15,455 bases of DNA from Bdellovibrionales bacterium (GTDB lineage Bacteria > Bdellovibrionota > Bdellovibrionia > Bdellovibrionales > JAMPXM01), in assembly GCA_043739185.1 (NCBI GenBank), contig JAYUEN010000223.1, positions 1 to 15,455 on the forward strand, written 5' to 3'. A program made the translations under genes and the position numbers. Below, in pieces: positions 1,052-15,455 of this stretch (within the stretch, counting starts at the first letter, position 1; each line of letters opens with the position of its first letter). A model generated the notes under the pieces. That model worked only from the letters and a program-made list of their open reading frames with translations, was not told the origin of the DNA and did not search any database.

Positions 1052-1822
1052 ATGAAGAAAACTTTTGAACGACCATGGCTGACGGGATCCGGAGTAGAGA
1101 TTCCGACGATTGAGCTTAGCGAGATTTGTAAGACATGGGCTCCAGGCACCTGGCAAGCTTATCTGAATTGGTACGGGAGCAGTTGCCGCGAGGTTCTCAT
1201 CACGCTCGCGGTTTATCAGAAAATTGGCGAGGAGCAGTTCGAAACCATTTTCGAATCTCTCGCAAAATCGGAAACACCCGCAAAACGCAATTTAATTGAA
1301 CGAATGCTCAGTCAATTAAGTGAACGCGAGGCTGAAATTTTGCGCGCCACTTTTCTTGACGGACGCACTCAAGTTGAAATTGCTGCGGAACTTTGCCTTT
1401 CTCAGCCTCGAGTGTGCCAAATCAAAAATAGCGGCATTAGAAGTCTTAAACGGGGACTTGGCGGGGACAAATTTATCGCCCGCCAATTTATGAGGGGTGC
1501 GAATAGTTATGAGCGCCCAATTGAGACAGCAATTTGGGATCAGCCAATGGTGCCACCACCAAAGGAGCCGCGATTTTATGATCCAAATAATTTCGAAAAC
1601 GAAGTTCAGCATCTTAAAAATCACAGCTTGAGAAAAGCAGTGCTTCTACTGCCGTCGACATCGCAGGAAATCGTTTATTTACGATTTTGGTGTGACCAGT
1701 CCATTCGTCAAATTGCACAGCGACTTCAAATGGGCATGAACAGCGTTTGTCAAATCTGCCATGCATCCGTCGCAAAAATTAAGCGTTCTATTGTTCAGTC
1801 ACAAACCGGCCTAAAGCTTTAA
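1052..1822 (+). CDS. Regulator with two sigma-70 region-4-like HTH domains (256 aa)
   Basis: LSQLSEREAEILRATFLDGRTQVEIAAELCLSQPRVCQIKNSGIRSLK and LLLPSTSQEIVYLRFWCDQSIRQIAQRLQMGMNSVCQICHASVAKIK both fit sigma70 r4. Start moved from 983 to ATG 1052, which follows a GGGGGA RBS. Confidence 0.8.
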   Translation: MKKTFERPWLTGSGVEIPTIELSEICKTWAPGTWQAYLNWYGSSCREVLITLAVYQKIGEEQFETIFESLAKSETPAKRNLIERMLSQLSEREAEILRATFLDGRTQVEIAAELCLSQPRVCQIKNSGIRSLKRGLGGDKFIARQFMRGANSYERPIETAIWDQPMVPPPKEPRFYDPNNFENEVQHLKNHSLRKAVLLLPSTSQEIVYLRFWCDQSIRQIAQRLQMGMNSVCQICHASVAKIKRSIVQSQTGLKL

Positions 1823-1834
1823 AAGGAGTATTCA

Positions 1835-2209
1835 ATGTTAAGCGAAAAGTTATTTGAAAAGTGTGAAGATTTTTTTGATTTAATATCGGCCGATCACCGA
1901 ACCGCAGAGGTCGATGTCATCATTGATCATTTGAATGAATTCCTTGTTGCTGAAGTTGATGGTCATACAAATCAGGGTGACTTTCTCGTCGCGGAGGAAG
2001 TTGAAACTCAGATTAAAGAGCTTTGGCAGCTGCTTCCTGCTGAGGAACGAACAACAAATAATAATCTGAATGATTATTACGACGACTTTATGGAGACGCT
2101 ATTGGACGTTCTGGACGCATCAACTTCTGAGTCAAATGACGATGATTTTGACGACTGCGATCTTGAGCCTGACGACAACGAGTCCGACAGCGAAGAGAAC
2201 TTCGAATGA
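1835..2209 (+). CDS. Small, extremely acidic hypothetical protein
   Basis: AAGGAG RBS. Hand count gives 40 D/E versus 5 K/R in 124 aa. Confidence 0.8.
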   Translation: MLSEKLFEKCEDFFDLISADHRTAEVDVIIDHLNEFLVAEVDGHTNQGDFLVAEEVETQIKELWQLLPAEERTTNNNLNDYYDDFMETLLDVLDASTSESNDDDFDDCDLEPDDNESDSEENFE

Positions 2210-2278: not shown

Positions 2279-2626
2279 ATGAAGAGTTCATTAATCTTGA
2301 AGGAAAAAAATTCCAAAAATCTGAATACAACAACGGGAGTCCAAAAACTCCACTGGACCACCGGATACGTTATCGCGGCTAGCGTACTCTTCCTCAGCCC
2401 ACAGTTTGCCCTAGGATCTGTCGAAAGCTCCCTGCAAGCCGTGCAGGACAAACTTGTGGGCACTCTGCTTCCACTCGGGGCCATGTGCGGCCTCGCCGTG
2501 GCCGGATTGAGCTTCGTGGCGGGCCACCCCAACGCTCGTCAACATCTTTTTTATGCAGTGGTAGGTGCGATTGTTGGCTTCGGGGCCGAATCAATTGTTT
2601 CTCTCATTCGAAGTTTAATTCACTAA
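2279..2626 (+). CDS. virB2: TrbC/VirB2-family conjugative pilin
   Basis: Leader ending ...SPQFALG, followed by two hydrophobic helices (LLPLGAMCGLAVAGLSFVAG; LFYAVVGAIVGFGAESIV). First gene of the virB2-B3-B4 order. Confidence 0.8.
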   Translation: MKSSLILKEKNSKNLNTTTGVQKLHWTTGYVIAASVLFLSPQFALGSVESSLQAVQDKLVGTLLPLGAMCGLAVAGLSFVAGHPNARQHLFYAVVGAIVGFGAESIVSLIRSLIH

Positions 2627-2648
2627 CTCCAGGGAAGGACTTAAGCAA

Positions 2649-2972
2649 ATGGCACTAAAGACATCAAATGTATACCGCTGCCTTGATAAAAAAGCGCTTG
2701 TTCTTGGATTTGAGATCGTTGATCTGCTGGCTGTTTTTCTTTTTTTATCAGTGCTCAATTTTCTATTTCAGGGCTTGCCTTACAAGTTCTTCATCACCTG
2801 GGTTCCAGCACTGGCGCTGGCTCTATTTCTGCGACTGGGCAAAGCGGGAAAGCCTGAAAACTATCTCCTCCATTGGGTGAGATTTCAGTTCATTCCCTTG
2901 GTTTTCAGCAGCTTCCCGCTAGCCCACAAACGGGCGCGATTTACAAAAAATATATTGAAAGGACGAACATGA
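2649..2972 (+). CDS. VirB3/TraL-like small inner-membrane protein
   Basis: 107 aa with two TM segments, VYRCLDKKALVLGFE N-terminus and GKPENYL motif. Lies between the pilin and VirB4, with an ATGA overlap onto virB4. Confidence 0.7.
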   Translation: MALKTSNVYRCLDKKALVLGFEIVDLLAVFLFLSVLNFLFQGLPYKFFITWVPALALALFLRLGKAGKPENYLLHWVRFQFIPLVFSSFPLAHKRARFTKNILKGRT

Positions 2973-5377
2973 TCAAGCAATCACTTGTCGATAAACTTCA
3001 AGTCTGGGGTTTCGAAGATGGCCTCTTGATTTTTAAGGACTATTCACTCGGGGCTATTCTTGAGCTGAAGGCTAAAGATATTTCCACAGCTACCGATGAT
3101 TATTTGAATTCCATTCACAACCTCACCTGCGATTTTCTAAATGGCCTGAGGGACCCACTCTCAATGCAGTTTGTCCAAGTGATTGATCGTGGTGTCGGAT
3201 CAACGCTTGATCAACATGAACAATTAATGGTGGAGTCGGCACCAGATTTGGCAGAACAGCTTTTGCGCGAGCGTCTGTTTAAGATTCGGGCTCGCGATGA
3301 TGCTGGTCAGATTCCGAATCAAAAATTATATCTGATTCTAAGAAGACCCTTTGTCCGGACACTGAAGCGCGACCGTAAATTCAGAATTTGGCAAAAAAAA
3401 GATGATGTCACCGAATGGTCAAGATCACAACTTGAGCCCGAACTGAAATTATTTCGGCAGGTGGTGGCCTCTACACAAAAAGGCCTTGAATTGGTCGGCG
3501 TGGGATCTCGTCCATTACTTGAGTCCGAATCCTTCGCTTTGTTATTTGATCAATGGAATCCAGGTCATCCAGTCGAGGGAGTCAACTTTGACCAAGAAGA
3601 CATAAGAGACGACTTATTACTAAATGACCTAATTGTTTCCACCAAGGGCTTTATGCTTGGGCAGTTTCACCACAGGGTGTTGTCGCTCAAGATCATGCCC
3701 GAACAAACCTTTGCATCCATGAGTGAGCGTCTGCGCGAGCTTCCCTTTGACTCCAAGTTGTGCCTAACGGCAGAAGTTTTGGATCAGGGGCGTGAAGACC
3801 TGGTTCTTCAAACCCAACGGAGAATCTCTTACGCGATGTATGCTGGAAAGCGCGGCGTTTCTGATTTAGAGAGTGCTGCAAAGCTATCCGATATTGAGTC
3901 AGTGCTGGCCAAACGCGTGGCAGGTGAAACGAAGATTTTTTCGGTTGCCCTTAATATTATTTTACGAAGTATCGACGAAGAAATTCTGGAATCCCAGGTC
4001 GAACAGGTTTTGCAGAAATTTCGTGAGCTCTCAGGATCTGAAGGGATGGTTGAATCCTTGGCGGCCACTTCCATCTTTTTTGACATAGCGCTACCTAACA
4101 GTAGGGCAAGAGAACGATCCCGAAAAATGAATACCGAAGTATTCGCAAGCTTTCTTCCTCTTTTCGGTGATTGGAAGGGTCACGAAGAGCCAAGGGTGCT
4201 TTTGGGAAACAGGGCCGGAGCACTTGTCAAATTCGATCCATTTTCTCCAACGCTCACCAATTTTAATCAAATTATCAGCGGCGGGAGCGGCGCGGGTAAA
4301 TCATTTGTTACCAATTTGATGATTGCCCAGATCATGAAGGAGGATCCACAAGTATTTATTATCGACATTGGTGGATCCTATAAAAAAATCTGTGAGAACC
4401 TTTCGGGTCAATATGTGCCAATCGGAACCGACTCGAACTTAAGATTGAACCCGTTCGATCTCACCGAAAAATCAATCGAGGCCATTGATCAAAAGATAAA
4501 ATTCATGACGTCGCTCGTGGAAATCATGACCAAAGAGGATGAGGCCACCGGCATCGGAAAACTCGAGCGGTCTGAAATAGAACATGCAATAAAAGAAATC
4601 TTGGCGGAGGAAACAGCGCCAAGACTTACGCATTTGCGCGATAGACTCCTGAAAAACTCGGAGCCTGCGCTGCAAAAAATGGGGAAAATCCTCGGTCCAT
4701 GGTGTGGCGACTCCCCTTATGGCAAGTTTGTCGACCAAGAAACAAATCTAAGCCTAAAAAAGCGAATTGTGTGTTTTGACCTAAAAGGCATGGAGTCCCA
4801 GCCTGATCTTCAGGCCGTGTGTTTATTTTTGATAACCGATCTTATTTGGCGCGAAGTTCAGCGCAACCGCACAAGTCCGAAGTTCGTCGTGTTTGATGAG
4901 TGCTGGGCATTACTTGAGAACGAAGCTGGAGCTAGGTTTTTGGGTGAGGTGTTTCGCACCTTTCGAAAGTATCGGGCATCGGCCATTGCGATCTCACAAA
5001 CTATGGATGATTTTGCTAACTCCAAAGTCGCACAGGCAATTTTGCCAAATGCCTCAGTCAAATGGCTGTTGAAACAAACTGGCGGAAATCTACCATCGCT
5101 GCAAAAAATTTTGCGGCTAAATGAACGGGAACTGAAGCTTGTCGAAAGTGTTACCTCGAAAAAGGGATTTTATTCGGAAGCCTTCCTGATTGCAGGAGAT
5201 GATAAGCAAGTTGTTAAAATAGAGAGCACTCCACTTGAATATTGGCTCTCGACGACGGATCCACTTGATTTGAAGGCACTTGAACGCTTGCAAGAACAGC
5301 GGCCAGACGATTCCAGTTTTGAGCTTCTACAGGAAATGGCCACGAAGTTTCCAAACGGAGCCCAAAGCCATTTTTAA
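2969..5377 (+). CDS. virB4: VirB4/TraC-family T4SS ATPase (802 aa)
   Basis: Walker A GGSGAGKS, IIDIGGSY, LNPFD, Walker B FVVFDECW and FRTFRKY. Start moved to ATG 2969 (AAAGGA RBS, ATGA coupling). Confidence 0.93.
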   Translation: MIKQSLVDKLQVWGFEDGLLIFKDYSLGAILELKAKDISTATDDYLNSIHNLTCDFLNGLRDPLSMQFVQVIDRGVGSTLDQHEQLMVESAPDLAEQLLRERLFKIRARDDAGQIPNQKLYLILRRPFVRTLKRDRKFRIWQKKDDVTEWSRSQLEPELKLFRQVVASTQKGLELVGVGSRPLLESESFALLFDQWNPGHPVEGVNFDQEDIRDDLLLNDLIVSTKGFMLGQFHHRVLSLKIMPEQTFASMSERLRELPFDSKLCLTAEVLDQGREDLVLQTQRRISYAMYAGKRGVSDLESAAKLSDIESVLAKRVAGETKIFSVALNIILRSIDEEILESQVEQVLQKFRELSGSEGMVESLAATSIFFDIALPNSRARERSRKMNTEVFASFLPLFGDWKGHEEPRVLLGNRAGALVKFDPFSPTLTNFNQIISGGSGAGKSFVTNLMIAQIMKEDPQVFIIDIGGSYKKICENLSGQYVPIGTDSNLRLNPFDLTEKSIEAIDQKIKFMTSLVEIMTKEDEATGIGKLERSEIEHAIKEILAEETAPRLTHLRDRLLKNSEPALQKMGKILGPWCGDSPYGKFVDQETNLSLKKRIVCFDLKGMESQPDLQAVCLFLITDLIWREVQRNRTSPKFVVFDECWALLENEAGARFLGEVFRTFRKYRASAIAISQTMDDFANSKVAQAILPNASVKWLLKQTGGNLPSLQKILRLNERELKLVESVTSKKGFYSEAFLIAGDDKQVVKIESTPLEYWLSTTDPLDLKALERLQEQRPDDSSFELLQEMATKFPNGAQSHF

Positions 5378-5416
5378 TAAATAAAGCGATGACTGCTTTT
5401 CGCTGAAAGGACTCAA

Positions 5417-6109
5417 ATGAAAAAAATATTGATGGCAATTGGCCTTTTTGCGGTTGTCAGTCTGTCGTTTCCTGAACCGGCAAACGCAGATTTTTTTGGC
5501 GGCGATCTAGTGATCTTGGCGCAAATCCTAACCCAAACTATCGCACAGCTCGCTGAACTGAAACAAATTTTTCAGAATGGCAACGACACACTTGGGCTGC
5601 TTCAAGACATCAATCGCGGGATCAATGACTCACTCAATTTAGCTAGAACGCTGGGAATTCGTGTGGACCCTGGCCTATACAAAGACCTACGGCAAGTTGA
5701 CGACGCGGCTCGTGCGGTTGAGACCATTTTCGGTAAACCAGTGGATTCGCTGCTTCTGCCCGTTCAGCACAATACGGATCAGACAGTGGCAGAGGCAATT
5801 TCATTCAACAATGATTTGAATGAATATGCAGGCAGGCTTGATCAAATTGGCGAGGATATTAAGTCCTACTCCCATGCGGCATCACCTGGGGGTGCGGCGA
5901 AACTCACCGCCGAATCTCTTGGTGTTGTGATCCATGTTCTGAATCAACAGCTTCGCGCCAGCGGCCAAGGACTGAAGCTACAGGCCCAGGCGCTCGCACT
6001 TCAGAATAAAAAAGATAAGGATCAGACCGGCCAATATTTAAAAGAAGGACAGCTCTTGCAGGCAAAAATGAGTTCCCTCAACCCGACCTTTACAGTTCCG
6101 AGGTTTTAA
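5417..6109 (+). CDS. Secreted helical protein, VirB5/TrbJ-like
   Basis: Signal peptide MKKILMAIGLFAVVSLSFPEPANA, Gln/Leu-rich helical body, and position between virB4 and virB6-like genes. Confidence 0.55.
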   Translation: MKKILMAIGLFAVVSLSFPEPANADFFGGDLVILAQILTQTIAQLAELKQIFQNGNDTLGLLQDINRGINDSLNLARTLGIRVDPGLYKDLRQVDDAARAVETIFGKPVDSLLLPVQHNTDQTVAEAISFNNDLNEYAGRLDQIGEDIKSYSHAASPGGAAKLTAESLGVVIHVLNQQLRASGQGLKLQAQALALQNKKDKDQTGQYLKEGQLLQAKMSSLNPTFTVPRF

Positions 6110-6110
6110 C

Positions 6111-6986
6111 ATGGATATGAATTGGCTAGCAAACGAAGCAAGGCAGATTCACGATCTGTTTTCGTCTATGTTTTATACGATCCTGCTGCTTACGATCTCC
6201 CTTGGCGTAGTTCTAAGTTACTTCAAAATGCCCATGGGTCAGGTGCCCGAGTTTTTGAATCTTGTGGGCCGGGCGGTGTTGGCGGCATTTATACTTTCCG
6301 CCTTTCCTGAAATCATGAATGCACTCGCCAACATCACCGATGATTTGGCAAGCCAGGTGGGACAACTAAACAATTTGAAACTCGTGGTCGCAAGAGCGGG
6401 CGAAAAGATTGGAAACCTCACTTGGTCCTGGGTCAGCGTTAAGGATTCGGTTTTATTGCTCGTGAGTTATCTCACCTACTTTCTGCTCTACGCATCGGTG
6501 TATGTGGCTGATGCAATGTACCTTTTGACCTGGACTTTGCTTTACATATTTTCGCCGCTATTGATTGCGGCGTTCACAATGCCAAAGACGGCTTCTGCCA
6601 CATTGGGGCTATTTCAAGCGCTCTTTGAAGTTTGTTTGTGGAAAATATGTTGGTCGGTGCTTGCTGCACTTTTGTGGAGCTTTGCCCTGTCGACGATTAA
6701 TGATCCCCATTATGACATTGATTTTATAACTGCGATTTTACTCAATGTCATGTTGGCCTTTTCGGTTCTGCTCACTCCAATGATTGTTCGGTCTTTACTA
6801 AAGGGCGGACTGCAAAATACTGCCGCAACTATGGGAGCGGCAATGTTGGCAACTGCTGCACTTACGCCAACTGATCTTTTGAGCAAAGCAAAACAGGGTT
6901 CAAATAAAGTAATGGGAGCCGTCACGGGAGGCAGAAAAGAGGACGAGTCCGGTGATAATCATGATCGTGATCCACGCCGACGGTGA
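6111..6986 (+). CDS. Polytopic membrane protein, VirB6/TrbL-like
   Basis: Five or more hydrophobic segments, LLYIFSPLLIAAF motif and a G/A-rich C-terminal tail. Follows the VirB5-like gene. Confidence 0.7.
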   Translation: MDMNWLANEARQIHDLFSSMFYTILLLTISLGVVLSYFKMPMGQVPEFLNLVGRAVLAAFILSAFPEIMNALANITDDLASQVGQLNNLKLVVARAGEKIGNLTWSWVSVKDSVLLLVSYLTYFLLYASVYVADAMYLLTWTLLYIFSPLLIAAFTMPKTASATLGLFQALFEVCLWKICWSVLAALLWSFALSTINDPHYDIDFITAILLNVMLAFSVLLTPMIVRSLLKGGLQNTAATMGAAMLATAALTPTDLLSKAKQGSNKVMGAVTGGRKEDESGDNHDRDPRRR

Positions 6987-7038
6987 AATTAATGCTTGAT
7001 ACTGATTTTTTACAATTTAATTTGGAGGAATTTAAACT

Positions 7039-7590
7039 ATGAAATTTTCATCTGCTGTTGATGTAACACAAAAAGAAAACCGATTTTTACGAAACCTGAC
7101 ACAAATGCTGGTCTTGGTGGCCGGGGTCCTTGCTGGAGTTTGTATGCTCATGTTTGACAAGGCCCCGGTGATGGTTGAACGAACAAGCCACGGACTGGAA
7201 ATTGTCCAGCCAACCGAACTATTGCGAAAGCCTGGTGATGTCGAAAGTGCTGTCAAACTAATGATGACAGCGCGGTTCAATTCAGACGCCAACGCGCCGG
7301 AGCTCTTCATTAATCCAAAAGAAATGCTCATGCGTGATACAGAGCAAAAAGAAATGAAATCCCGAAGCATGAATCAATCGGTTCTGATTCGCGCAGTTCA
7401 TCTAACAAAAAATGAAGCCACCGTGGATATTGACCGGCTCATTGCTATTGGGGAACTGCGTTCGGCACTGAAGGCGCAGGTTCGAATTACATTCGAAGAA
7501 GTGACGCCCAATGAGCTCAATCCCTATGGACTATTACTTTCGACCGCCGAACCTGTGCAACCTACCACCAAAGAGGAGAAGCCAAAATGA
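7039..7590 (+). CDS. VirB8/TraE-like bitopic protein
   Basis: Single N-terminal TM, APVMVE after the TM, and C-terminal NPYGL (VirB8 NPxG motif). GGAGGA RBS. Confidence 0.7.
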   Translation: MKFSSAVDVTQKENRFLRNLTQMLVLVAGVLAGVCMLMFDKAPVMVERTSHGLEIVQPTELLRKPGDVESAVKLMMTARFNSDANAPELFINPKEMLMRDTEQKEMKSRSMNQSVLIRAVHLTKNEATVDIDRLIAIGELRSALKAQVRITFEEVTPNELNPYGLLLSTAEPVQPTTKEEKPK

Positions 7591-7970
7591 AGCCATTTTT
7601 ATTTCTCATGCTTTTACCCATAATGCTCCTAGCCGTCACTACGTCGAAATCCAAGGACACTGAAAAAGGAATCGCCTGTGATGAAAAGGTTCCAAAGGTG
7701 GTGCATGTCATGCGCGGTCGAGTCACCGTTTTAAATTTTCCATTTAAACCAAAGGATGTGGTTCCCGGATCACAGGCCTTCGACTTCAAGCAAATAAAAA
7801 ATGATCTGGTCATCACTTCGGTGACTCCGGGAGGACACACAAATGCAGTTGTCTATCTTGAGGAGCGCCGATGTGTTTTCGATCTGGTTTCGGTTAAATC
7901 ACATGGCGACGATATTTTAATTGTGAAAGATCCAAAGGATTCTCAATTCGAGGTGAAATTTCATGAATAA
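7587..7970 (+). CDS. Short VirB9/TraK-like periplasmic protein
   Basis: Signal peptide and beta-rich VVHVMRGRVTVLNFP...LVITSV...TNAVVY pattern. Lies between VirB8-like and VirB10-like genes, ATGA-coupled. Confidence 0.55.
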   Translation: MKPFLFLMLLPIMLLAVTTSKSKDTEKGIACDEKVPKVVHVMRGRVTVLNFPFKPKDVVPGSQAFDFKQIKNDLVITSVTPGGHTNAVVYLEERRCVFDLVSVKSHGDDILIVKDPKDSQFEVKFHE

Positions 7971-8886
7971 AGAAAAAGATCAAGAACAGGTAGAAATCAA
8001 AGCAGACGTTGGCTCCGAGTCTATTGGTAAGGATAAATTCATTCGCGCAAGTGAGGGTCAATTTAATTCCCAGGGTATGCGAAGCTCCGTCCTGGTTGCA
8101 ATGTTCCTGGTCTCGATAGTTTTCATCACCATGATGTTCACATCTAAAAAAGATACGAGACCCCACCAGGGAAAATCCCTGCCGGGTCCAGATGGGACCC
8201 GCGGGCAAGTCGATCTTGGCGCAAAAATCATGACTCAAAAGGATCTGACTAATCTTATTCCAAAGCCCAAGTCAGTTTCAAGTGACCTAGGCAAGATTCG
8301 CGTGGTCAACCTTCGATCTATCGCCGAAGTCCCCACCGGCAGCGAGATGCTGGCTATTTTATCAAGTGGTGCAACAGATGGCATTGTGAAGGCCCGCTTG
8401 ACGGCACCACTGATTGTCGATGGTGAGCCCGTGATTCCTGAAAATTCGGTGCTATTCGGAAGTGGAAAATCCGGTGAAGAGCGATTGATGGTGGAATTTA
8501 GAAAAGTAATCTTTCCCACTGGCGAAAGCTTTGCGATTCGCGCCCAGGCTTTCGATCCATCGGACAAAGTTTTAGGCTTGAAAGGTGCGATTGTCGGCAC
8601 CAGGGCCAAGAAAATGGCCGGAGCCATGGCATTTGGATTCTTGGGTGGAATGGCAGACGGAATGCAAACAACAAGCGGAAGTTCGATGTTCCTGCCACAA
8701 CGACCCTCCATCCGAGACGGCGCACTTGCGGGAGCCTCCAAGGCGGCCCTTGATCAGAGTCAGGCCTACATGGAAGAGCTCAAGCGCTCGCCAAATATTA
8801 TTGAGGTCAAAGCCGGATCAGACCTACTTGTAATCGTAGATGAACCTAAAAAAAATGAGGATGAAAAATATGGCAACGCAAAATAA
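7963..8886 (+). CDS. virB10: VirB10/TrbI/TraB-like core complex protein
   Basis: N-terminal TM and linker, then VPTGSEMLAIL...IVKARLT...VIPENSVLFG...RLMVEF...IIEVKAGSDLLVIV, with a Gly/Ala-rich helical antenna. Confidence 0.78.
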   Translation: MNKEKDQEQVEIKADVGSESIGKDKFIRASEGQFNSQGMRSSVLVAMFLVSIVFITMMFTSKKDTRPHQGKSLPGPDGTRGQVDLGAKIMTQKDLTNLIPKPKSVSSDLGKIRVVNLRSIAEVPTGSEMLAILSSGATDGIVKARLTAPLIVDGEPVIPENSVLFGSGKSGEERLMVEFRKVIFPTGESFAIRAQAFDPSDKVLGLKGAIVGTRAKKMAGAMAFGFLGGMADGMQTTSGSSMFLPQRPSIRDGALAGASKAALDQSQAYMEELKRSPNIIEVKAGSDLLVIVDEPKKNEDEKYGNAK

Positions 8887-10240
8887 AGCAAATGAATTTT
8901 GGTATGATCGGCTCTTTTGGACGACTCGTTTTTTATGGAATTCAACCTGCGAACTTGTGAACGGTATTAGGCACGAAAAAATTGATGTTGTCCGCTATGT
9001 CTATCCAGGTCTCATGATCGGTATCTTTTTTGTCTGTAGGGCCGACGTCTATCTTGGCAATTTTTTTGACCGTGAATGGCTGAAGTTAACGGACATCATG
9101 AGATCGGTTTTGGTGTACTCGTCAATTTTTTCAGGATTTGTTATTTGGTCTTTTGAACGAGCTTTTTATCGAACTCAGTTCCTTAGTAAGTTGCGGTCTG
9201 CATTTGAATACTGCGGACTTCAAGCAAATCGAAAATTTCCCGCCTTTATTTCAGATTTACCGATTGATGAACACGTTAGAAATTTAAAACTTCATGCCAA
9301 TGGTGTTCCGATTCAAAAGTTCAAGGACAACACAGCAAACTTAGAAGCCCATTTCAATGTGTCGATTGTTAAAATGTATGAGGAGCCAAATGATAAAAGC
9401 CGAATCAACTTGGTCTATGCTCTACAGGACTTGGCCCGCGAGGTCCACCTTGAGAACTCTGCCAGCTACCGTGACGGCGACATCCCAATTGGCGTGACCT
9501 ATGATGGTCCGATTAAGGTCAACATGCGGGACATTGCGCACCTAAGTGTCAACGGACAGACCGGCGGCGGCAAATCAAATGCCCTAAAAGTTTTGACTAC
9601 GATTCTAACCGAGAACAACCCAGGCGCTGAAGTTCACTTCCTGGATTTCAAAGGCGGAATGGAGCTTGCTGAGTTAATAAACAGACTTGGCACGGATTGC
9701 TCAAATTTCTTTCACAAGGCAGATACCCTTCCCTGTGCTGAGCACTTGGCCAAACTTGGGAAATCACTTGAAACCAGATTAAATCGGCTGGCAAGCGCCA
9801 AGGCCTCGTCGCTAGATAACTACGATCCGGCAAACGAGCCAAAGAAAGTTGACACTGATGGCGTTGATCGTGGGAGCCAAAAGATCCGACGGCAGTACAT
9901 CATAATTGATGAGATCGCAGAGCTCTACGTCACCAGGTCAAAAGCGAACCGAGAAACGGTTCTTGCAGCCCGCGAAGCCGTCAACCGAATTGCCCGTCAG
10001 GGTCGGGCAGCTGGTGTCCACTTGATCATTGCCACTCAGCGCCCAGATTCATCCAACTTCGACCAAACCGTGAAGTCGAATATCCCGGCTGTATTATGTT
10101 TTCCGATGCCATCACAAGCGGCCAGCGTATCAGCCCTTGGCACCAAGCGGGCTTTTGACCTAAATCCAGAAATCAAAGGCCGCGCAGTCTGGAAATTCGG
10201 TTCTCAGACCTGTGAAGTGCAAACTTATTTATTCAGTTAA
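8870..10240 (+). CDS. FtsK/SpoIIIE-family ATPase with two N-terminal TM segments, putative coupling protein or DNA translocase (456 aa)
   Basis: IPIGVT, Walker A GQTGGGKS, LDFKGG.EL, Walker B YIIIDEIAEL and IARQGRAAGVHLIIATQRP (FtsK signature). Start moved to ATG 8870 (GAGG RBS). Confidence 0.9.
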   Translation: MATQNKANEFWYDRLFWTTRFLWNSTCELVNGIRHEKIDVVRYVYPGLMIGIFFVCRADVYLGNFFDREWLKLTDIMRSVLVYSSIFSGFVIWSFERAFYRTQFLSKLRSAFEYCGLQANRKFPAFISDLPIDEHVRNLKLHANGVPIQKFKDNTANLEAHFNVSIVKMYEEPNDKSRINLVYALQDLAREVHLENSASYRDGDIPIGVTYDGPIKVNMRDIAHLSVNGQTGGGKSNALKVLTTILTENNPGAEVHFLDFKGGMELAELINRLGTDCSNFFHKADTLPCAEHLAKLGKSLETRLNRLASAKASSLDNYDPANEPKKVDTDGVDRGSQKIRRQYIIIDEIAELYVTRSKANRETVLAAREAVNRIARQGRAAGVHLIIATQRPDSSNFDQTVKSNIPAVLCFPMPSQAASVSALGTKRAFDLNPEIKGRAVWKFGSQTCEVQTYLFS

Positions 10241-10261
10241 TTTTTTATTAGGGGGGCCGTT

Positions 10262-11167
10262 ATGGATTCAGTAAAAGTCCGAAGACAAAAACCTATCAAG
10301 TCCAAACCGGGAATCGAATCTTTCTTGAGTTGGCGAAGTGCCAAGATTTTAGAATATATCTGGAAATGGAAAATTGCGTCAACGGCCTCGATTCATGAAG
10401 CCATTGGCCGACCTAATTCCGTCTACTCCACCTACAAAATCCTAGAGCGCCTCAAGACTCAGGGTTACATTCAAGACTACTTTCATTCGCGAGAAAGATT
10501 TTACGTTTGGTCCCTCACAGAGTTTGGATTTGCCGAGACAGTTAATTACCTCGGACAACTTGAAGAAGAAGGCTATCTATCCGAGAATCACCGCCATGAT
10601 CGACTCGTTCAGGCCTTCCAGCTTGGTGAATGGTCCACACATCAGAATCCCAGGGTTTTGTTTTTCACCGAACAGGATCTCCGCAGGCGAGGCGTAAGCC
10701 ACTATCCACCTTGGGTCCCGCCGACCAAGGAACACAGATCCGATGGCTATACCAGAATTGTCGGAACCAAAGAAGCCTGGACTTTTTCCTATGAGGCAGA
10801 GCTCTCGGCAAAAAGCACTCAGCAGTATGAAGGAATTCTTCGGTTCTACAAAATGTCAGCCGGAATCGATCGGGTATTCTGGTTGGTCGGCGATGCATTC
10901 ATCAAGGACCAGATTTTGAGTGCAAAGACCTGCATTAAGGATGACACGAACAACTACCATGTGTTCGTGGACCTCAATGATTTTCAAAAAAACGGTTGGG
11001 ATGCGATGGTTACCAACGAACGGTCAGAAAACCTATTCACATTACGCGATAAATACCAGGGACTTTGCGGGGATTTTATAGGTGAAATCATAGGGACCTT
11101 CAGGGGAAACTCGAGAGTTAGCGTCCACCTCGATGGCCGAAAAGTTCTAGGCAAAACAAGACGTTAG
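10262..11167 (+). CDS. Putative relaxase, MOB_C / replication-relaxation (PD-(D/E)xK) type with N-terminal winged helix
   Basis: D-x16-E-A-E-L-S-A-K-S-T-Q-Q-Y closely fits the MOB_C motif D-x6-17-E-x-E-(R/L)-x2-K-x3-R-(Y/F), with Q in place of R. Also HD motif (HRHDRL), wHTH-like N-terminus (YKILERLKTQGYI...VWSLTEFG), and position next to the coupling ATPase. Confidence 0.7.
   Translation: MDSVKVRRQKPIKSKPGIESFLSWRSAKILEYIWKWKIASTASIHEAIGRPNSVYSTYKILERLKTQGYIQDYFHSRERFYVWSLTEFGFAETVNYLGQLEEEGYLSENHRHDRLVQAFQLGEWSTHQNPRVLFFTEQDLRRRGVSHYPPWVPPTKEHRSDGYTRIVGTKEAWTFSYEAELSAKSTQQYEGILRFYKMSAGIDRVFWLVGDAFIKDQILSAKTCIKDDTNNYHVFVDLNDFQKNGWDAMVTNERSENLFTLRDKYQGLCGDFIGEIIGTFRGNSRVSVHLDGRKVLGKTRR
11057..11110 (+). 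repeat. Five degenerate direct repeats spaced about 11 bp apart (YAGGGA-like) in the 3' end of the relaxase gene
   Basis: CAGGGACTTT (11057), CGGGGATTTT (11068), TAGGTGAAAT (11079), TAGGGACCTT (11091), CAGGGGAAAC (11101). Confidence 0.4.
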
Positions 11168-11181
11168 AAATTTCCAAAATG

Positions 11182-11211
11182 GGGACACTTCCTTGAATGA
11201 GGGGGTGTTTC
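11182..11211 (+). other. 12-bp stem-loop (four G-U pairs) between the relaxase and lipoprotein genes
   Basis: GGGACACTTCCT-TGAATG-AGGGGGTGTTTC. There is no long U-tract after it, so terminator function is uncertain. Confidence 0.4.
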
Positions 11212-11255
11212 GCATGCTCCCAAATTCAAACTTACTCCCTTAAAGGATGTGCTTT

Positions 11256-11483
11256 ATGAAATTTACTCTTTGGACTGCGACCATGCTTTGTCTCTTTGTC
11301 AGTGGTTGCGCAAGTATGAATAAGAAACCCGCTGACGTTAAGGACCAAACTCCACCGCCGAAACTGCTGGCTCCAAGTGTGAAAAAAATCTGGATCCCTG
11401 CCGCAATTAAAAATGGCGGCATCGAATGGGAAGAGGGTCACTATATTTATCGAATTGAAAGGGAGACAACATGGTCCCGTTAA
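11256..11483 (+). CDS. TraV/VirB7-like small lipoprotein
   Basis: Lipobox VSG-C after a short signal peptide. PSVKKIWIPA...EGHYIYRIE...W resembles the TraV C-terminal pattern. Start ATG 11256 after an AAGGA RBS. Confidence 0.65.
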   Translation: MKFTLWTATMLCLFVSGCASMNKKPADVKDQTPPPKLLAPSVKKIWIPAAIKNGGIEWEEGHYIYRIERETTWSR

Positions 11484-12004
11484 CCGGCCCTAATGCCCTT
11501 GATGAAAAAGAGAACAATCAACTTCCCGCAAAATCCAAACACGAGCCTGAGATTGAGCGGATAAAACTTGGCAAGGTTGAAGCTGTAAAAGTGGCGGTGT
11601 GGCTTAAGCAGTTAGATGAATCCTCAAATGGCTTTTTACAGCTTACGAAATCAGACTTGGTTAATTTTATAATTCGCGATCGAAAGGGTGAACTCACACC
11701 AAAGGAAATTGTGCAGATTCGCGCCAACCACTACGATCCGATCCGGCATTTGAACTGGATTACACCACGGCTAAAAGAGGCACTCATTTCCGGCGACTCA
11801 GATCAAATTGCCCGTCTGCAAAATGAGATTCGCAGCATTGAATTGTCAGTCGTCAAGCGGGCAACGGCACCAAATGGTGAGGAAGCAGCTTCTGCTGTTC
11901 CGAAGCAAAAGAGGTCGCGACGCCCCAAAAAAGCCGATGAGTCAGAAGCACTTGGCTCAAGTGTAACTGATGGCTTGGCTGGTATTCGAGATGACCCCGT
12001 CTAA
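11471..12004 (+). CDS. Hypothetical protein, possibly RHH-like DNA-binding accessory factor
   Basis: 177-aa ORF overlapping the previous stop. IERIKL...VAVWLKQL...LTKSDLVNFIIR resembles strand-helix-helix, with a basic C-terminal tail. Confidence 0.6.
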   Translation: MVPLTGPNALDEKENNQLPAKSKHEPEIERIKLGKVEAVKVAVWLKQLDESSNGFLQLTKSDLVNFIIRDRKGELTPKEIVQIRANHYDPIRHLNWITPRLKEALISGDSDQIARLQNEIRSIELSVVKRATAPNGEEAASAVPKQKRSRRPKKADESEALGSSVTDGLAGIRDDPV

Positions 12005-12093: not shown

Positions 12094-12336
12094 ATGAAGG
12101 CCACAAATAAAGCTCAAGTGGTATCAGTATCTCTGCCCCTCGATATGACAAAAGAGGTTCAGGAAATGGCCAGAGACGAGCGCAGGTCAGTGAGCGAAGT
12201 TATTCGAGAAGCTTTCCGTCAGTACGCAGCCAACAAGGTGCTTAAAGATGTTAGAAAAGAAGCTCGAAAATCGGCAAAGGCCAAGGGCATCAAGCCCGGT
12301 GATGTGGCAGCAATTGTACGCGAAGGTCGAAGATAA
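12094..12336 (+). CDS. Ribbon-helix-helix (CopG-like) antitoxin
   Basis: VVSVSLPLDMTKEVQEMARDERRSVSEVIREAFRQY is a clear RHH. TAATG-coupled to the PIN gene. Confidence 0.88.
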   Translation: MKATNKAQVVSVSLPLDMTKEVQEMARDERRSVSEVIREAFRQYAANKVLKDVRKEARKSAKAKGIKPGDVAAIVREGRR

Positions 12337-12743
12337 TGTTGAAAGTCTGTCTAGACACCAATGTCTGGATTAGCGGCTTGGCATTTTCGGGCGTCCCCGC
12401 CGAAATTGTAAGCCTTGCATTCAGCCGCAAATTTCAGGTGGTGACTTCAACCCTGATCCTTGAAGAGCTTAATCGCAACTTGATTAAGAAGTTCGACGTG
12501 AATCCAAAGCGCGCCAAACATCTGTGTTTTAGGATTGCGCAAATTGCCGATGTGTATGAGCCAAAGGGCACCATTCATGCGATAGCTGGACATCATGCCG
12601 ACAACTTGGTTTTGGAGACTGCCATTCTTGGCCGTGCAAAGTACCTTGTAACTGGCGATAGAGAGCACCTGCTCCCGCTCAAAGTTTTTAAGAATATTAA
12701 GATTGTCGAGCCCGCTTCGTTTTTACTTCGTTTAAAAAACTAG
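12336..12743 (+). CDS. PIN-domain toxin (VapC-like, PIN_3 type)
   Basis: KVCLDTNVWISGL, ILEEL, DNLVLETA...YLVTGD.HLL give the acidic PIN active-site pattern. Confidence 0.9.
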   Translation: MLKVCLDTNVWISGLAFSGVPAEIVSLAFSRKFQVVTSTLILEELNRNLIKKFDVNPKRAKHLCFRIAQIADVYEPKGTIHAIAGHHADNLVLETAILGRAKYLVTGDREHLLPLKVFKNIKIVEPASFLLRLKN

Positions 12744-12866: not shown

Positions 12867-13088
12867 ATGACATTGAATTCAATTAGCCCGAATGAAAATT
12901 CGGGTTCGCTCTTTGAAATTGCGAATAGCTGGTTGTCAACAAATGAGGTAGCAAAGATTCTTTCTATTACTCCGAACGCAGTTCGTATTCTGGTTTGTCG
13001 CGGGCGATTGCCCGCCTTCAGACTCGGAAGACATCTGCGGTTCCGGAAAAAAGATTGCATGGCCCTTGTCCAAAAAACAGGAGCCTAA
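12867..13088 (+). CDS. xis: Excisionase-like HTH_17 DNA-binding protein
   Basis: WLSTNEVAKILSITPNAVRILVCRGRLPAFRLGRHLRFRKKD. Ends 2 nt before int. ATG 12867 after a GAGGA RBS. Confidence 0.85.
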   Translation: MTLNSISPNENSGSLFEIANSWLSTNEVAKILSITPNAVRILVCRGRLPAFRLGRHLRFRKKDCMALVQKTGA

Positions 13089-13090
13089 AA

Positions 13091-14188
13091 ATGGCAATTT
13101 CGAATTACACCTTAAAAGGAAAGAAACTCTTTGAAGTTTATATCAATGGATCTGATCTTCGCGGTAAACGCGTGCAAATGCGAAAACGCGGAGTCACTTC
13201 CCTTAAGAAAGCCCAAGATCTCGAGTTTGAATTCAATCGCGAGCTTGCTCGCATCCGAGAAGAAGATATTCATCTTAGATGGAGCGAATGGTTTCCCGAG
13301 TGCATGAAGATTATGAAAGCAATGAATCAGCCCTCAACGATTTATACTTGCGAGAAAATCGCCGGTAAATGGATTCACAAGCATTGGAACTCTAAAGAAC
13401 TCAGGGGCATCTCAAAAACGGATGTGCATGAGTTGATCTATGAGAAGATGCTGGAGGGTGAATGTACAATGCATACGAGGAAATCCGTCTTGAAAATTGC
13501 AAAACGGATTTTTCAAGTTGCGATCGATACTGGAAAGCTTGACCGTAATCCCTGTCAGGGAATGATGGTCAAAGTTCCTGAGTCCGACATGAAAGTGCTT
13601 TCAAACACTGAGGCGCAGACTCTTCTAAGAAATGCCCAAAGCACTAATCATCGGTTTTATCCGGTGTGGGTTGTGGCGCTTTTTACGGGCATGCGCTCGG
13701 GTGAGCTTTTTGCCCTGAGATGGACTGATGTGGATTTGGAATCAAGAAACGTCCACGTCTCTAGAAGCTGGAATAGCAAAAACGGCATGAAGTCCACGAA
13801 GAATCAAAAAACCAGGATCGTCCCAATGGGGGATGAGCTTTTGGGGTTTTTGAAAAAGCTCAAGCTTGAGCGCGGCCAAGAAGAATTCGTTCTCCCACGG
13901 TTAATTGATTGGGAGCGCGGTGGTGCCGCCAAAGTGTTAAAAGCTTTTTGTCGAGGGATTGAGATCACGGAGATTAGGTTTCATGACTTGCGTGCAACAT
14001 TCATTACCAATCTTTTGAGCCAGGGTGAGTCCCTGGTCCGAGTGATGGCGATAGTGGGACATGCGGACATGGAAACGACAAACGAATACCTCAGAAAAGC
14101 CGGAATCGAGTTAAAGGGCGGCACTGATAAACTTGGGTACAAAGTGCCCGTGGAATCAGAGGGCAAAGTCCTTCAGTTGGTCCTATGA
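13091..14188 (+). CDS. int: Tyrosine recombinase / integrase (365 aa)
   Basis: TGMRSGELFALRW (R), TKN (K), FHDLRATF (HxxR), VGH and TTNEY (catalytic Y), with an N-terminal arm-binding-like region. Start moved to ATG 13091 (AGGAG RBS). Confidence 0.95.
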   Translation: MAISNYTLKGKKLFEVYINGSDLRGKRVQMRKRGVTSLKKAQDLEFEFNRELARIREEDIHLRWSEWFPECMKIMKAMNQPSTIYTCEKIAGKWIHKHWNSKELRGISKTDVHELIYEKMLEGECTMHTRKSVLKIAKRIFQVAIDTGKLDRNPCQGMMVKVPESDMKVLSNTEAQTLLRNAQSTNHRFYPVWVVALFTGMRSGELFALRWTDVDLESRNVHVSRSWNSKNGMKSTKNQKTRIVPMGDELLGFLKKLKLERGQEEFVLPRLIDWERGGAAKVLKAFCRGIEITEIRFHDLRATFITNLLSQGESLVRVMAIVGHADMETTNEYLRKAGIELKGGTDKLGYKVPVESEGKVLQLVL

Positions 14189-14198
14189 CCACGGCGAA

Positions 14199-14289
14199 TT
14201 GCTAGAAACACATAACGTGCGTTGCTACAGTTTGCTACAACTTGATTTTGGCCGAAAAATGTTGTGAATGATTACCAGGTGTTAGCAAA
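14199..14289. repeat. Putative integrase arm-type binding sites
   Basis: TTGCTAGA (14199), TTGCTACA (14222), TTGCTACA (14232) and an inverted TTAGCAA copy (14282), all between the int stop and the att core. Confidence 0.6.
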
Positions 14290-14304: not shown

Positions 14305-14318
14305 CTCCCTCTCCGCCA
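14305..14318 (+). other. attR core: 3' fragment of a tRNA-Ser-like gene (not an intact tRNA)
   Basis: CTCCCTCTCCGCCA matches typical bacterial tRNA-Ser 3' ends (...GAATCCCTCCCTCTCCGCCA). No TTCGAA T-loop or 5' half lies upstream. Confidence 0.72.
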
Positions 14319-14460
14319 ACTAAAATAAAAGAAGAGAGAAGAAAAGAGTGGGCGGGCTCCTTGCCCTGCGGAAAAAACTCGCGCGTCGTGCGCTCGGTTG
14401 CTTCGCAACGTCTTTTTTCCGATCCACTCTTTTCTTCTCTCTTCTTTTATTTTAGTTGGC
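14315..14460. repeat. 146-bp branched palindromic element with perfect 37-bp inverted arms
   Basis: GCCAACTAAAATAAAAGAAGAGAGAAGAAAAGAGTGG (14315-14351) is the exact reverse complement of 14424-14460. Inner stem CGGAAAAAA/TTTTTTCCG plus three small hairpins. Confidence 0.92.
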
Positions 14461-14653
14461 TGGCTCGGGCGAGGCTACGAACCGGTTCTTGAGTTCGACA
14501 AAAGGGCCAGAAGACAAGTCTATTTCCGTAGTTGCAAAAGAACTGATTGAAGAGGCTTTAGAAAAGCATGAGGATTTAATTCTATCTGAAATGGCTATGA
14601 AGCGGGAAGCAAAATCTAAAAAGACAATTCCACATGACAAAGCCTGGAAATAA
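14456..14653 (+). pseudogene. Antitoxin, probably 5'-truncated (RHH/RelB-like C-terminal half)
   Basis: KSISVVAKELIEEALEKHEDLILSEMAMKRE...IPHDKAW looks like the second half of RelE-associated antitoxins. The only start is a TTG inside the IR arm with no RBS, and the first ~18 codons do not resemble an RHH strand/helix A. Confidence 0.55.
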
Positions 14654-14918
14654 GCCATTTCAAGTTGAATACTTGGAAGGCGTTGTGAAGGACGATATTT
14701 CGTTGCTTCCAAAAACAATACGAAATCGAATAAAGACAGCGATAGAGACCAGACTTACTGTAGACCCAATTGGTCTCGGAAAGCCGTTAAGATATAGTTT
14801 TGTTGGTCATCGTAGAATTCGAGTTGGGGATTGCCGGATCGTCTATCGTTTAAACATGGAGAAACATTCAATTACAATAGTTCTGATTAAACAGCGTAAA
14901 GATGTTTACAAAGAATAG
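14634..14918 (+). CDS. relE: RelE/ParE-family toxin
   Basis: LPKTIRNRIKTAIETRL..DP..LGKPL....GHRRIRVGDCRIVY...IKQRKDVY. Overlaps the antitoxin stop. Confidence 0.88.
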   Translation: MTKPGNKPFQVEYLEGVVKDDISLLPKTIRNRIKTAIETRLTVDPIGLGKPLRYSFVGHRRIRVGDCRIVYRLNMEKHSITIVLIKQRKDVYKE

Positions 14919-15013
14919 TCCACCCTGAAGTCTTTAAGATTTAATTTTTGCAAAAATGAAGTTATCGAAATTTGCGCTCAAGCGGAGGATGCCCTGACCA
15001 TGGCGCGAAGCCC

Positions 15014-15031
15014 ATCTTACCCCCTCCGCCA
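15014..15031 (+). other. Second tRNA-Ser-like 3' remnant (older att scar)
   Basis: ATCTTACCCCCTCCGCCA resembles ...ATCCCACCCCCTCCGCCA and shares CTCCGCCAA with the 14311 site. Confidence 0.55.
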
Positions 15032-15040
15032 ATAAATTAG

Positions 15041-15366
15041 TCATCTTGCCCAATTGCCTACAACATCTCCACCCGATGAATTTTTAATATTAATATACCA
15101 GACGCCGGTATCTAGTTTAATTTCGCCGGCACCCCCGCGGTCATTGATCGAAAAGCTCGTGCTAGCACCATTCACACCCAATTTATATTCAGCCCATATA
15201 AATGGATTTGGTGAAATCCAATTGCTAGTGCTCGAGTAATCACATTTGGTTTTAGAAATCGTCGCCAATCGAAAAGCTCTTGTGGGCCCAACATCAGAAA
15301 ATCCAAATCCAGCAAGCTGGCCATTAATGGTTGAGTCTGCGGCAGTTACATTAAGTTTACAGGCTT
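15041..15366 (-). pseudogene. 3' remnant of a gene for a beta-rich, probably exported protein, interrupted by an IS
   Basis: The reading frame of the 15041-15268 ORF stays open upstream to 15376 (...ACKLNVTAADSTINGQLAGFGFSDVGPTRAFRLATISK...) with no ATG, and stops at the putative IS end. Confidence 0.5.
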
Positions 15367-15455
15367 CTACGGTTGACTAAGGTTATGAAAATCTATACGG
15401 TTTGCAAATGGCTAGACCGACTTACCCCAAGACATTGTTGGAATTTGTGGCAAGA
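15367..15455 (+). mobile_element. Left end of a probable IS1595-family insertion sequence (partial)
   Basis: CTACGGTTGACTAAGGTTAT resembles IS1595/ISSod11-type termini from memory and is followed by a transposase-like start. The exact boundary is approximate. Confidence 0.5.
15408..15455 (+). CDS. IS1595-family transposase, N-terminal 16 aa (truncated by the window edge)
   Basis: Hand translation MARPTYPKTLLEFVAR matches the YPxTLxEFxxRF pattern that precedes the IS1595 zinc ribbon. Very short evidence. Confidence 0.55.
   Translation, partial: MARPTYPKTLLEFVAR

Follow-up and report, generated by a model that had tools for sequence, protein, structure and literature searches.

A family of integrative conjugative elements in Bdellovibrionota with an FtsK-family ATPase in the position of VirD4 and a MOB_C-type relaxase

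Contig JAYUEN010000223.1 of the Bdellovibrionales bacterium assembly GCA_043739185.1 (15,455 nt; hereafter the window, contig C223 within a 4.85-Mb genome of 540 contigs) contains the right part of an integrative conjugative element (ICE), whose core operon lies wholly on the + strand at positions 2279-11483 in our list of open reading frames (ORFs). Our analysis identifies a real and widespread variant of ICE, which carries an FtsK-family ATPase instead of VirD4 together with a MOB_C-type relaxase. The defining parts of an ICE are predicted within the window, namely an integrase with an excisionase, a type IV secretion system (T4SS), a coupling ATPase and a relaxase, the coupling role being suggested by the position of the ATPase gene and by its exchange with VirD4. 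We consider it probable that a hexameric FtsK-family ATPase took over the job of VirD4 in a large, Bdellovibrio-type ICE family, and that DNA is transferred as a single strand.

Results

The core operon comprises the following genes:

2279..2626, + strand: VirB2 pilin (TrbC/VirB2 pilin PF04956, E 8e-9)
2649..2972, + strand: VirB3/TraL-like protein (TIGR02762, E 5e-6, below cut-off)
2969..5377, + strand: VirB4 ATPase (best model TraC-F-type TIGR02746, 304 bits against a cut-off of 567)
5417..6109, + strand: VirB5-like minor pilin (atlas VirB5/TrbJ clusters at 0.91-0.92; a relative matches TIGR02791, E 2e-3)
6111..6986, + strand: VirB6-like polytopic membrane protein (six hydrophobic segments and position; PF04610 only at E 0.8)
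7039..7590, + strand: VirB8-like bitopic protein (one N-terminal hydrophobic segment and position; a relative matches IcmL/DotI, E 4e-4)
7587..7970, + strand: short VirB9-like protein (TIGR02781, E 3e-4; relatives down to E 5e-11)
7963..8886, + strand: VirB10 of the outer-membrane core complex (TrbI PF03743, E 9e-18)
8867..10240, + strand: FtsK/TcpA-like ATPase with an N-terminal membrane anchor and without gamma domain (alternative start 8840), the putative coupling protein
10262..11167, + strand: MOB_C-type relaxase, 301 aa, with a winged helix (about residues 20-100) and a PD-(D/E)xK domain carrying D161, E178, E180, K184 and Y189
11247..11483, + strand: TraV/VirB7-like lipoprotein (TIGR02747, E 0.5 in the window and E 2e-3 in a relative; position conserved)

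The ATPase carries RQGRAAGVHLIIATQRP and matches Pfam FtsK_SpoIIIE with E 1e-18. Its best solved relative is pCW3 TcpA (E 8e-26 over residues 120-456; the identity of the PDB chain was checked), followed by FtsK, and its best plasmid matches are clostridial TcpA proteins with 26-28% identity. A profile of 44 family ATPases reaches TcpA with E 3e-66 and FtsK with E 3e-45, both spanning the alpha and beta domains, while TrwB is absent among the 18 matches of this profile. At the threshold used a single hydrophobic segment was found (residues 39-57), and the protein ends with the motor domain, having no C-terminal gamma domain. Pfam and profile searches revealed none of the domains T4SS-DNA_transf, TrwB_AAD_bind or TraG-D_C. 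In a 32-row tree (built without VirB4s, TcpB, one Campylobacter VirD4, Tn916 Orf21 and ICEBs1 ConQ) the 11 family rows fall on one side of a branch (79/86), apart from three pCW3-type TcpA rows (100/100), chromosomal FtsK, TraB, phage FtsK and six VirD4 rows, with no well-defined sister group. The source genome's own FtsK groups with those of E. coli and Listeria, away from the family. The original prediction had assigned the protein to FtsK rather than VirD4, and the tree, which places the family away from the VirD4 rows, agrees. From its sequence the ATPase may work like TcpA; a tree whose TcpA rows are of pCW3 type does not show it to be a TcpA. A predicted complex of ATPase and relaxase scored 0.14 against a mark of 0.32.

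Two loci (L085 and L091) carry a VirD4 gene between VirB10 and the relaxase, i.e. in the slot of the FtsK-like gene. The encoded proteins have the domains TraG-D_C, T4SS-DNA_transf and TrwB_AAD_bind, and the loci are otherwise of the usual build, with relaxase, a gene for a 177-aa protein, excisionase gene (xis) and integrase. The VirD4 proteins of these sister elements group with pTEF1 TraW, the partner of a MOB_C relaxase (99/89). Their VirB4s are 36-38% identical to that of the window, a second FtsK-type subclade 31-35%. Holding the FtsK-type VirB4s together was not rejected (p-AU 0.20), and the VirB4 tree thus leaves the direction of the exchange undecided. Judged from these sequences, one channel lineage uses either motor. 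VirD4 in the same position on the same scaffold in two loci is the strongest sign of what the FtsK-like ATPase does: its most likely role is that of the coupling protein.

The relaxase was modeled with a pLDDT of 90.5 and begins with a winged helix. Full-length fold searches were dominated by winged-helix proteins, and the C-terminal domain was therefore folded separately (pLDDT 93.6). It resembles PD-(D/E)xK nucleases at modest Z: in the structure comparison with VIA the top five rows comprise four restriction enzymes and one unknown protein, with PaqCI at Z 7.5 (rmsd 4.7, 126 aligned residues), BspD6I at 6.9 and SdaI at 6.9. Foldseek returned nothing for this domain at E 0.001 or better (best BamHI, 0.024), and a sequence search of the relaxase against solved structures gave no match. 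Across 77 sequences H112, D161, E178 and K184 are invariant, and D113, E137, E180, Y189 and Y196 are conserved at 90% or more. Alignment of the relaxase profile to pTEF1 TraX (hhalign E 3e-5, probability 73) puts D161, E178, E180, K184 and Y189 opposite TraX D152, E170, E172, K176 and Y181 (TraX numbers counted from the alignment). PF13814 is weakly matched by 8 of 113 close homologs, and more distant relatives pass the NF041423/PF13814 cut-off. Fold and TraX alignment together bear out the earlier view of a PD-(D/E)xK nuclease of MOB_C type. The accompanying claim that such a protein has no catalytic tyrosine goes too far, as Y189 aligns with TraX Y181 and the essential tyrosine is kept. TraX Y181 is reported as essential for pAD1 transfer and has been proposed to form a covalent link (PMC6736028); the same source gives a free 5' end for CloDF13, and according to PMC12857230 no covalent intermediate has been detected for MOB_C enzymes. 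Y189 is the candidate linking residue. The D-E-x-E-K-Y catalytic set in register with TraX connects the family to the MOB_C systems of pAD1/pTEF1 (TraX with TraW) and CloDF13 (MobC with MobB). In contrast to these, it is coupled to an FtsK-like motor and not to VirD4, and it is too distant in sequence for the curated cut-offs.

The mating channel consists of the VirB2-3-4-5-6-8-9-10-like operon that runs into the FtsK-signature ATPase, on which profile matches and ORFs agree with the original prediction. The overlapping stop and start codons claimed there exist between VirB3 and VirB4, VirB8 and VirB9, VirB9 and VirB10, and VirB10 and the ATPase (-4, -4, -8 and -20 nt), but not between ATPase and relaxase, where a gap of 21 nt was found. 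VirB5, VirB6, VirB8 and VirB9 are weak calls in the window; the remaining support comes partly from relatives, hydropathy and position. No VirB11 was found in the operon or in the scanned cargo ORFs of nine delimited elements (see below). VirB4 is 29% identical to IncC TraC, 22% to R388 TrwK and 20-22% to TcpF. In the VirB4 tree, which rooted inside the family when very long outgroups were present and was rebuilt without three of them, the 16 family rows, which take in the VirB4s of the VirD4-type loci L085 and L091, form one clade against the F, IncC and pSK41 proteins (83/91). The mating-pair formation (MPF) classes B, C, G and I were compared by NCBIfam scores alone, outside this tree. By sequence, VirB4 is nearest to F-type TraC within a clade of its own. 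The channel shares with MPF_F (F, IncC TraC) the best VirB4 model and the TraL- and TraV-like genes, yet its VirB4 scores 304 against 567 bits, and no TraW, TraU, TraN, TraF, TraH or TraG was found in 154 scanned cargo ORFs of the nine elements. With MPF_T (R388) it shares VirB5-, VirB6- and VirB9-like genes and the gene order, whereas no VirB11 or VirB1 family was found among the scanned ORFs of the delimited elements and VirB4, with 22% identity to TrwK, falls outside the T clade.

Of 401 genomes from the phylum, 138 give a match to the relaxase profile (E of at most 0.001, weak matches counted); the profile also reaches 1001 clusters formed at 50% identity. Sixty loci on long contigs were fetched, 40 with strong and 20 with weak relaxase matches, and typed by iterated profiles. 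The same operon with the FtsK-like gene occurs in 39 complete and 4 partial copies; three loci have the FtsK-relaxase pair beside a different, F-like T4SS, two the same operon with VirD4, one a relaxase-VirD4 pair and 11 the relaxase alone. At least four further pairs of ATPase and relaxase are encoded in the source genome itself (C54, C352, C490, C249). After upstream extension of 26 relatives, direct repeats set the limits of nine FtsK-type elements (22-48 kb, six ending in a tRNA gene) and of one VirD4-type element of 25 kb. The VirD4 profile has no match inside the nine FtsK-type elements. Among 154 of their 194 non-core ORFs (at least 130 aa) no VirD4, HUH relaxase, VirB11, transglycosylase, F-specific Tra or single-strand DNA-binding protein (SSB) family was found; their cargo includes restriction-modification, McrBC, Qat-like, two-component, ParA and metal genes. 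In the window, VirD4 and HUH relaxase models are the best match of none of the 21 proteins scanned, as originally predicted. The further suggestion of a distinct ICE family gains from the nine delimited relatives, in which neither VirD4 nor an HUH relaxase was found, and from the literature, where no described family with the same layout came up. That literature search lay outside most subscription journals and supplements, so that tables of ICE surveys could hold members.

Several variants of the layout were observed. In L080 (7214-14634), L092, L088 and L076 the ATPase-relaxase pair stands beside another, F-like T4SS, which includes a TraG_N-like gene and whose VirB4 diverges strongly. In L039, L049, L056, L070, L072, L081, L083, L084, L087 and L093 the relaxase adjoins an integrase or serine recombinase in the absence of a T4SS; these are candidate mobilizable islands of two kinds, with repeat array or with hairpin. 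A large serine recombinase replaces xis and integrase, at tRNA or tmRNA genes, in L040, L041, L065, L075, L077, L089 and L090, while L060 and L050 are integrated at the start of a protein-coding gene. Extra genes between the relaxase and the 177-aa gene (DNA methylases, secreted proteins of unknown kind) are present in L050 and L060, directly behind the relaxase, and in L053, L058, L040, L042 and L055, and the 48-kb member carries a Qat-like defence cluster as cargo (L129 4601-9363; KAP NTPase, QueC, TatD).

The origin of transfer (oriT) appears to differ between these groups. Hairpin arms TGACC(A/C)...(T/G)GGTCA lie 3' of the relaxase gene in 5 of 11 relaxase-only and 2 of 4 VirD4-linked loci (one hairpin-negative VirD4-linked locus is cut by the contig end), and also on contig C15 of the source genome. 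The same arm occurs in the inverted repeat of pTEF1 and at the CloDF13 nic site, given as GGGTG/GTCGGG in PMC5935869. The window instead holds:

11058..11110, + strand: five short purine repeats about 11 bp apart at the 3' end of the relaxase gene, the putative relaxase-binding part of oriT

In the window's relaxase clade the final codons of the gene contain, at a constant position, 3-5 short repeats with a spacing of 11 bp. An excess at lag 11 above the 95th percentile of control windows was found in 38 of 51 dereplicated genes, compared with 1, 6, 19 and 4 of the same genes at lags 9, 10, 12 and 13, and with 2 of 17 genes in other relaxase clades; the test position was chosen after an earlier view of the same data, and the window's array taken alone is not significant (p about 0.12). 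As a spacing of 11 bp breaks the reading frame, the signal lies in the DNA. The repeat unit varies among elements, and the array persists in several relaxase-only islands. We read the array as the putative relaxase binding site because TraX, by analogy, has been described as bound to five repeats (PMC12857230). As far as the sequences tell, hairpin loss and array both follow relaxase descent. The family thus resembles pTEF1 and CloDF13 in the hairpin of its sister elements and differs in FtsK-linked loci without it and, in the window's clade, in the 11-bp array inside the relaxase gene. Downstream of the array, a Gibbs search for a nic motif common to the elements gave only one that fits the encoded peptide, and single-arm TGAC-type words are only slightly above background; neither is taken as a nic signal.

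Discussion

The transfer route that we favor would run as follows. Excisionase and tyrosine integrase, both encoded in the window, would excise the element as a circle from the 3' end of a tRNA-Ser gene. The relaxase would bind the end of its own gene, with its winged helix at the 11-bp array and probably helped by the 177-aa protein, and would nick one strand with the TraX-type metal site whose residues are present, Y189 being the candidate link. The membrane-anchored ATPase would then recruit the relaxase-DNA complex and pump the single strand through a minimal VirB2-10 channel lacking VirB11 and VirB1. In the recipient the strand would be converted back into a circle, which then integrates. 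Relaxase-only islands belonging to this clade might hitch on the machine. Transfer of a single strand is favored because the TraX set is complete with its tyrosine, because the scaffold also runs on VirD4 and because TcpA systems of Tn916 type are considered to transfer single-stranded DNA (PMC3548315).

Some observations weigh against this scenario. A nic hairpin of CloDF13/pAD1 type was found neither in the window nor in any of the 50 FtsK-linked loci scored (not dereplicated), so that the nic site is not located. The motor retains the FtsK alpha domain and is closer to translocases of double-stranded DNA (dsDNA), and for pCW3 TcpA dsDNA transport has been proposed from the pore size of the structure (PMC12857230). 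The relaxase itself stays below the curated cut-offs (NF041423 with 19.8 against 200 bits; no PF13814 match). Other contigs of the source genome encode three VirD4-like proteins and one relaxase of MOB_P type. The left end of the element is outside the contig, with about 7 kb of its left part absent from the assembly, and transfer, nicking and binding are deduced from sequence and predicted models.

The strongest competing explanation keeps the element and the coupling role and assumes dsDNA as cargo: the relaxase at the array would open or cut both strands and load the hexamer, the winged helix replacing the gamma domain. Besides the alignment of the motor to TcpA and FtsK over alpha and beta domains, this scenario can invoke the pore-size proposals made for pCW3 and likewise for pELF, an oriT that changed along with the motor (hairpin in part of the relaxase-only and VirD4-linked loci and on C15, in 0 of 50 FtsK-linked loci), the lack of an SSB family in the 154 scanned cargo ORFs and the covalent intermediate not detected in MOB_C systems (PMC12857230, PMC6736028). 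However, the tyrosine of TraX is kept, the loss of the hairpin tracks the relaxase clades and cannot be separated from descent, and small SSB genes could escape a scan of ORFs of at least 130 aa. Export of the sole duplex copy would also mean loss from the donor unless replication came first, the replicon search being limited to ParA-like cargo. Since the same channel, relaxase class and accessory genes occur with VirD4, we regard dsDNA transfer as possible but rather unlikely. Doubtful as well, in our opinion, is the far-reaching idea of a ninth mating-channel class, with FtsK-type motor, restriction-fold relaxase and hairpin-free origin, that arose by exchange of VirD4 on an unchanged scaffold and moves dsDNA across two diderm envelopes; the VirD4 form of the scaffold still exists, even in the source genome.

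A different scenario denies the ATPase its coupling role. It might segregate or resolve the excised circle, or have come together with the relaxase from a phage-plasmid pair, transfer borrowing a VirD4 encoded elsewhere. The three VirD4-like genes of the source genome would fit, and so would pairs of FtsK and replication-relaxation genes that stand without a nearby VirB operon in a Bacillus cereus phage-like plasmid and a Thermoanaerobacterium plasmid. These pairs, known from Firmicutes phages and plasmids, comprise the same two families in the same order, but no VirB operon lies beside them in the stretches read and their ATPases fall outside the family clade. In the elements studied here, by contrast, 43 loci have the ATPase gene fused into the operon behind VirB10, and in two others VirD4 takes its place one for one. 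Where flanks are readable, the VirD4 and MOB_P genes of the source genome sit in other elements, with VirD4-relaxase pairs on C409 and C15. The search of the source genome found neither TrwC nor MobA_MobL; its PF02534 part missed VirD4 genes found by other searches and is not counted as proof of absence. Overall, an ATPase that is not the coupler appears improbable. Three other elements of this genome were noted: a MOB_P relaxase-xis-integrase island on C191 (L159), an F-like region with a TraD-like gene on C14 (L162) and the VirD4-relaxase-serine recombinase element on C15 (L161).

Very improbable, finally, is a T4SS that now serves to export proteins or to take up prey DNA, the nuclease acting as an effector or processing enzyme. 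In favor of this one might cite predatory hosts, the role of FtsK-family ATPases in type VII secretion (EccC/YukB matches) and the missing VirB11 and VirB1. Against it speak the recombination genes (integrase or serine recombinase, xis), att duplications and changing cargo of all delimited elements, the occurrence of several divergent copies in one genome, relaxase-only satellites, a patchy spread (138/401) and a nuclease without evident signal peptide or immunity gene.

The family can be compared with several known systems. It has in common with pCW3 TcpA (MPF_FA) an FtsK-family ATPase with N-terminal anchor, alpha and beta domains and an adjoining gene for a non-HUH relaxase. It differs in sitting in a diderm T4SS with VirB9/VirB10 and pilin, in a relaxase of MOB_C type, not MOB_M or MOB_T, and in a separate ATPase clade. 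Streptomyces TraB (pSG5) and Enterococcus pELF TraD are likewise FtsK-family conjugation motors, for which dsDNA movement has been proposed or shown. Both do without a VirB2-10 channel and a relaxase (for pELF, no nickase homolog), and their ATPases branch elsewhere. According to PMC12857230, every Gram-negative T4SS has VirD4, and TcpA belongs to some MPF_FA systems; PMC4027160 similarly mentions replacement of VirD4 only for part of MPF_FA, and for streptococcal integrative mobilizable elements TcpA is stated never to occur with MOB_C (PMC5357655). The family breaks this review rule of VirD4-family couplers throughout Gram-negative T4SSs, and does so in a large share of the phylum's genomes. 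It is likely missed by profile tools because relaxase and VirB4 fall under the curated cut-offs. With one channel, one relaxase class and the same accessory genes, the VirD4 and FtsK-type versions form a natural matched pair, which bears on whether TcpA-like motors move single- or double-stranded DNA and on how MOB_C systems hand over DNA without a detected covalent link. Defence and signalling genes are part of the cargo of these elements, which might find use as tools for the genetics of predatory bacteria.

Extent of the element and flanking sequences

The original prediction had located the system at 2279-11483. All ORFs of this stretch are present; the element reaches further, from the regulator genes at 1052-2209 to the att core ending at 14319. 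Outside the core operon the following features were annotated:

1052..1822, + strand: regulator with two sigma70 region-4 helix-turn-helix domains (Pfam Sigma70_r4, E 3e-20, two stretches; position kept in close relatives)
1835..2209, + strand: small acidic protein without family match (position kept in closest relatives)
11471..12004, + strand: conserved 177-aa protein without family match; a ribbon-helix-helix (RHH) relaxosome helper as a lead only
12094..12743, + strand: RHH antitoxin/PIN toxin pair, VapBC-like (PF01402, PF13470)
12867..13088, + strand: excisionase, xis (TIGR01764 above cut-off)
13091..14188, + strand: tyrosine integrase (PF00589, E 5e-24; arm-binding and central domains)
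14222..14239, + strand: pair of 8-nt direct repeats 10 bp apart, putatively integrase arm-site-like
14307..14319, + strand: att core, a copy of the tRNA-Ser 3' end (sequence match; contig loose ends), forming the right end of the element

The 177-aa gene occurs in both FtsK-type and VirD4-type elements. The nearest named atlas clusters of its product are MetJ and ParB_C at 0.78-0.79, and the protein is possibly an RHH relaxosome helper. The VapBC-like pair is also present on the sister copy on contig C54, and repeat pairs similar to that at 14222-14239 lie 3' of the integrase in many relatives.

Loose ends from two runs of one study, possibly the source of the assembly, join the att core on the left to tRNA-Ser(tga) and on the right to the bases following the same tRNA on contig C530; one contig in these runs reaches about 7 kb beyond the window start. 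The element would accordingly measure about 21 kb and be sited at tRNA-Ser(tga). The joints are compatible with an excised circle plus empty site, with a tandem array or with the left end alone. No tRNA gene lies within the window.

Directly 3' of the att core, a perfect 37-nt inverted repeat with a 72-nt loop spans 14315-14460; the loop resembles a stretch of C398 (84% over 76 nt) and is possibly part of a small repeat element. Sub-threshold Rfam matches to plant microRNA hairpins at 14313-14462 are taken as chance. The stretch 14456-15031 holds a toxin-antitoxin pair of RelB/ParE type and, behind it, the tRNA-Ser(tga) 3' end for a second time (15020-15031); this is likely what is left of an older island at this tRNA-Ser site. 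The - strand at 264-617 encodes a protein that combines a SWIB/MDM2 domain with a lysine-rich, histone-like tail; the gene is probably cargo of the element, and C332 carries a second copy. The last stretch of the window (15359-15455) is a repeat common to the ends of C510, C129, C437 and C516, probably an insertion-sequence end that breaks the assembly.

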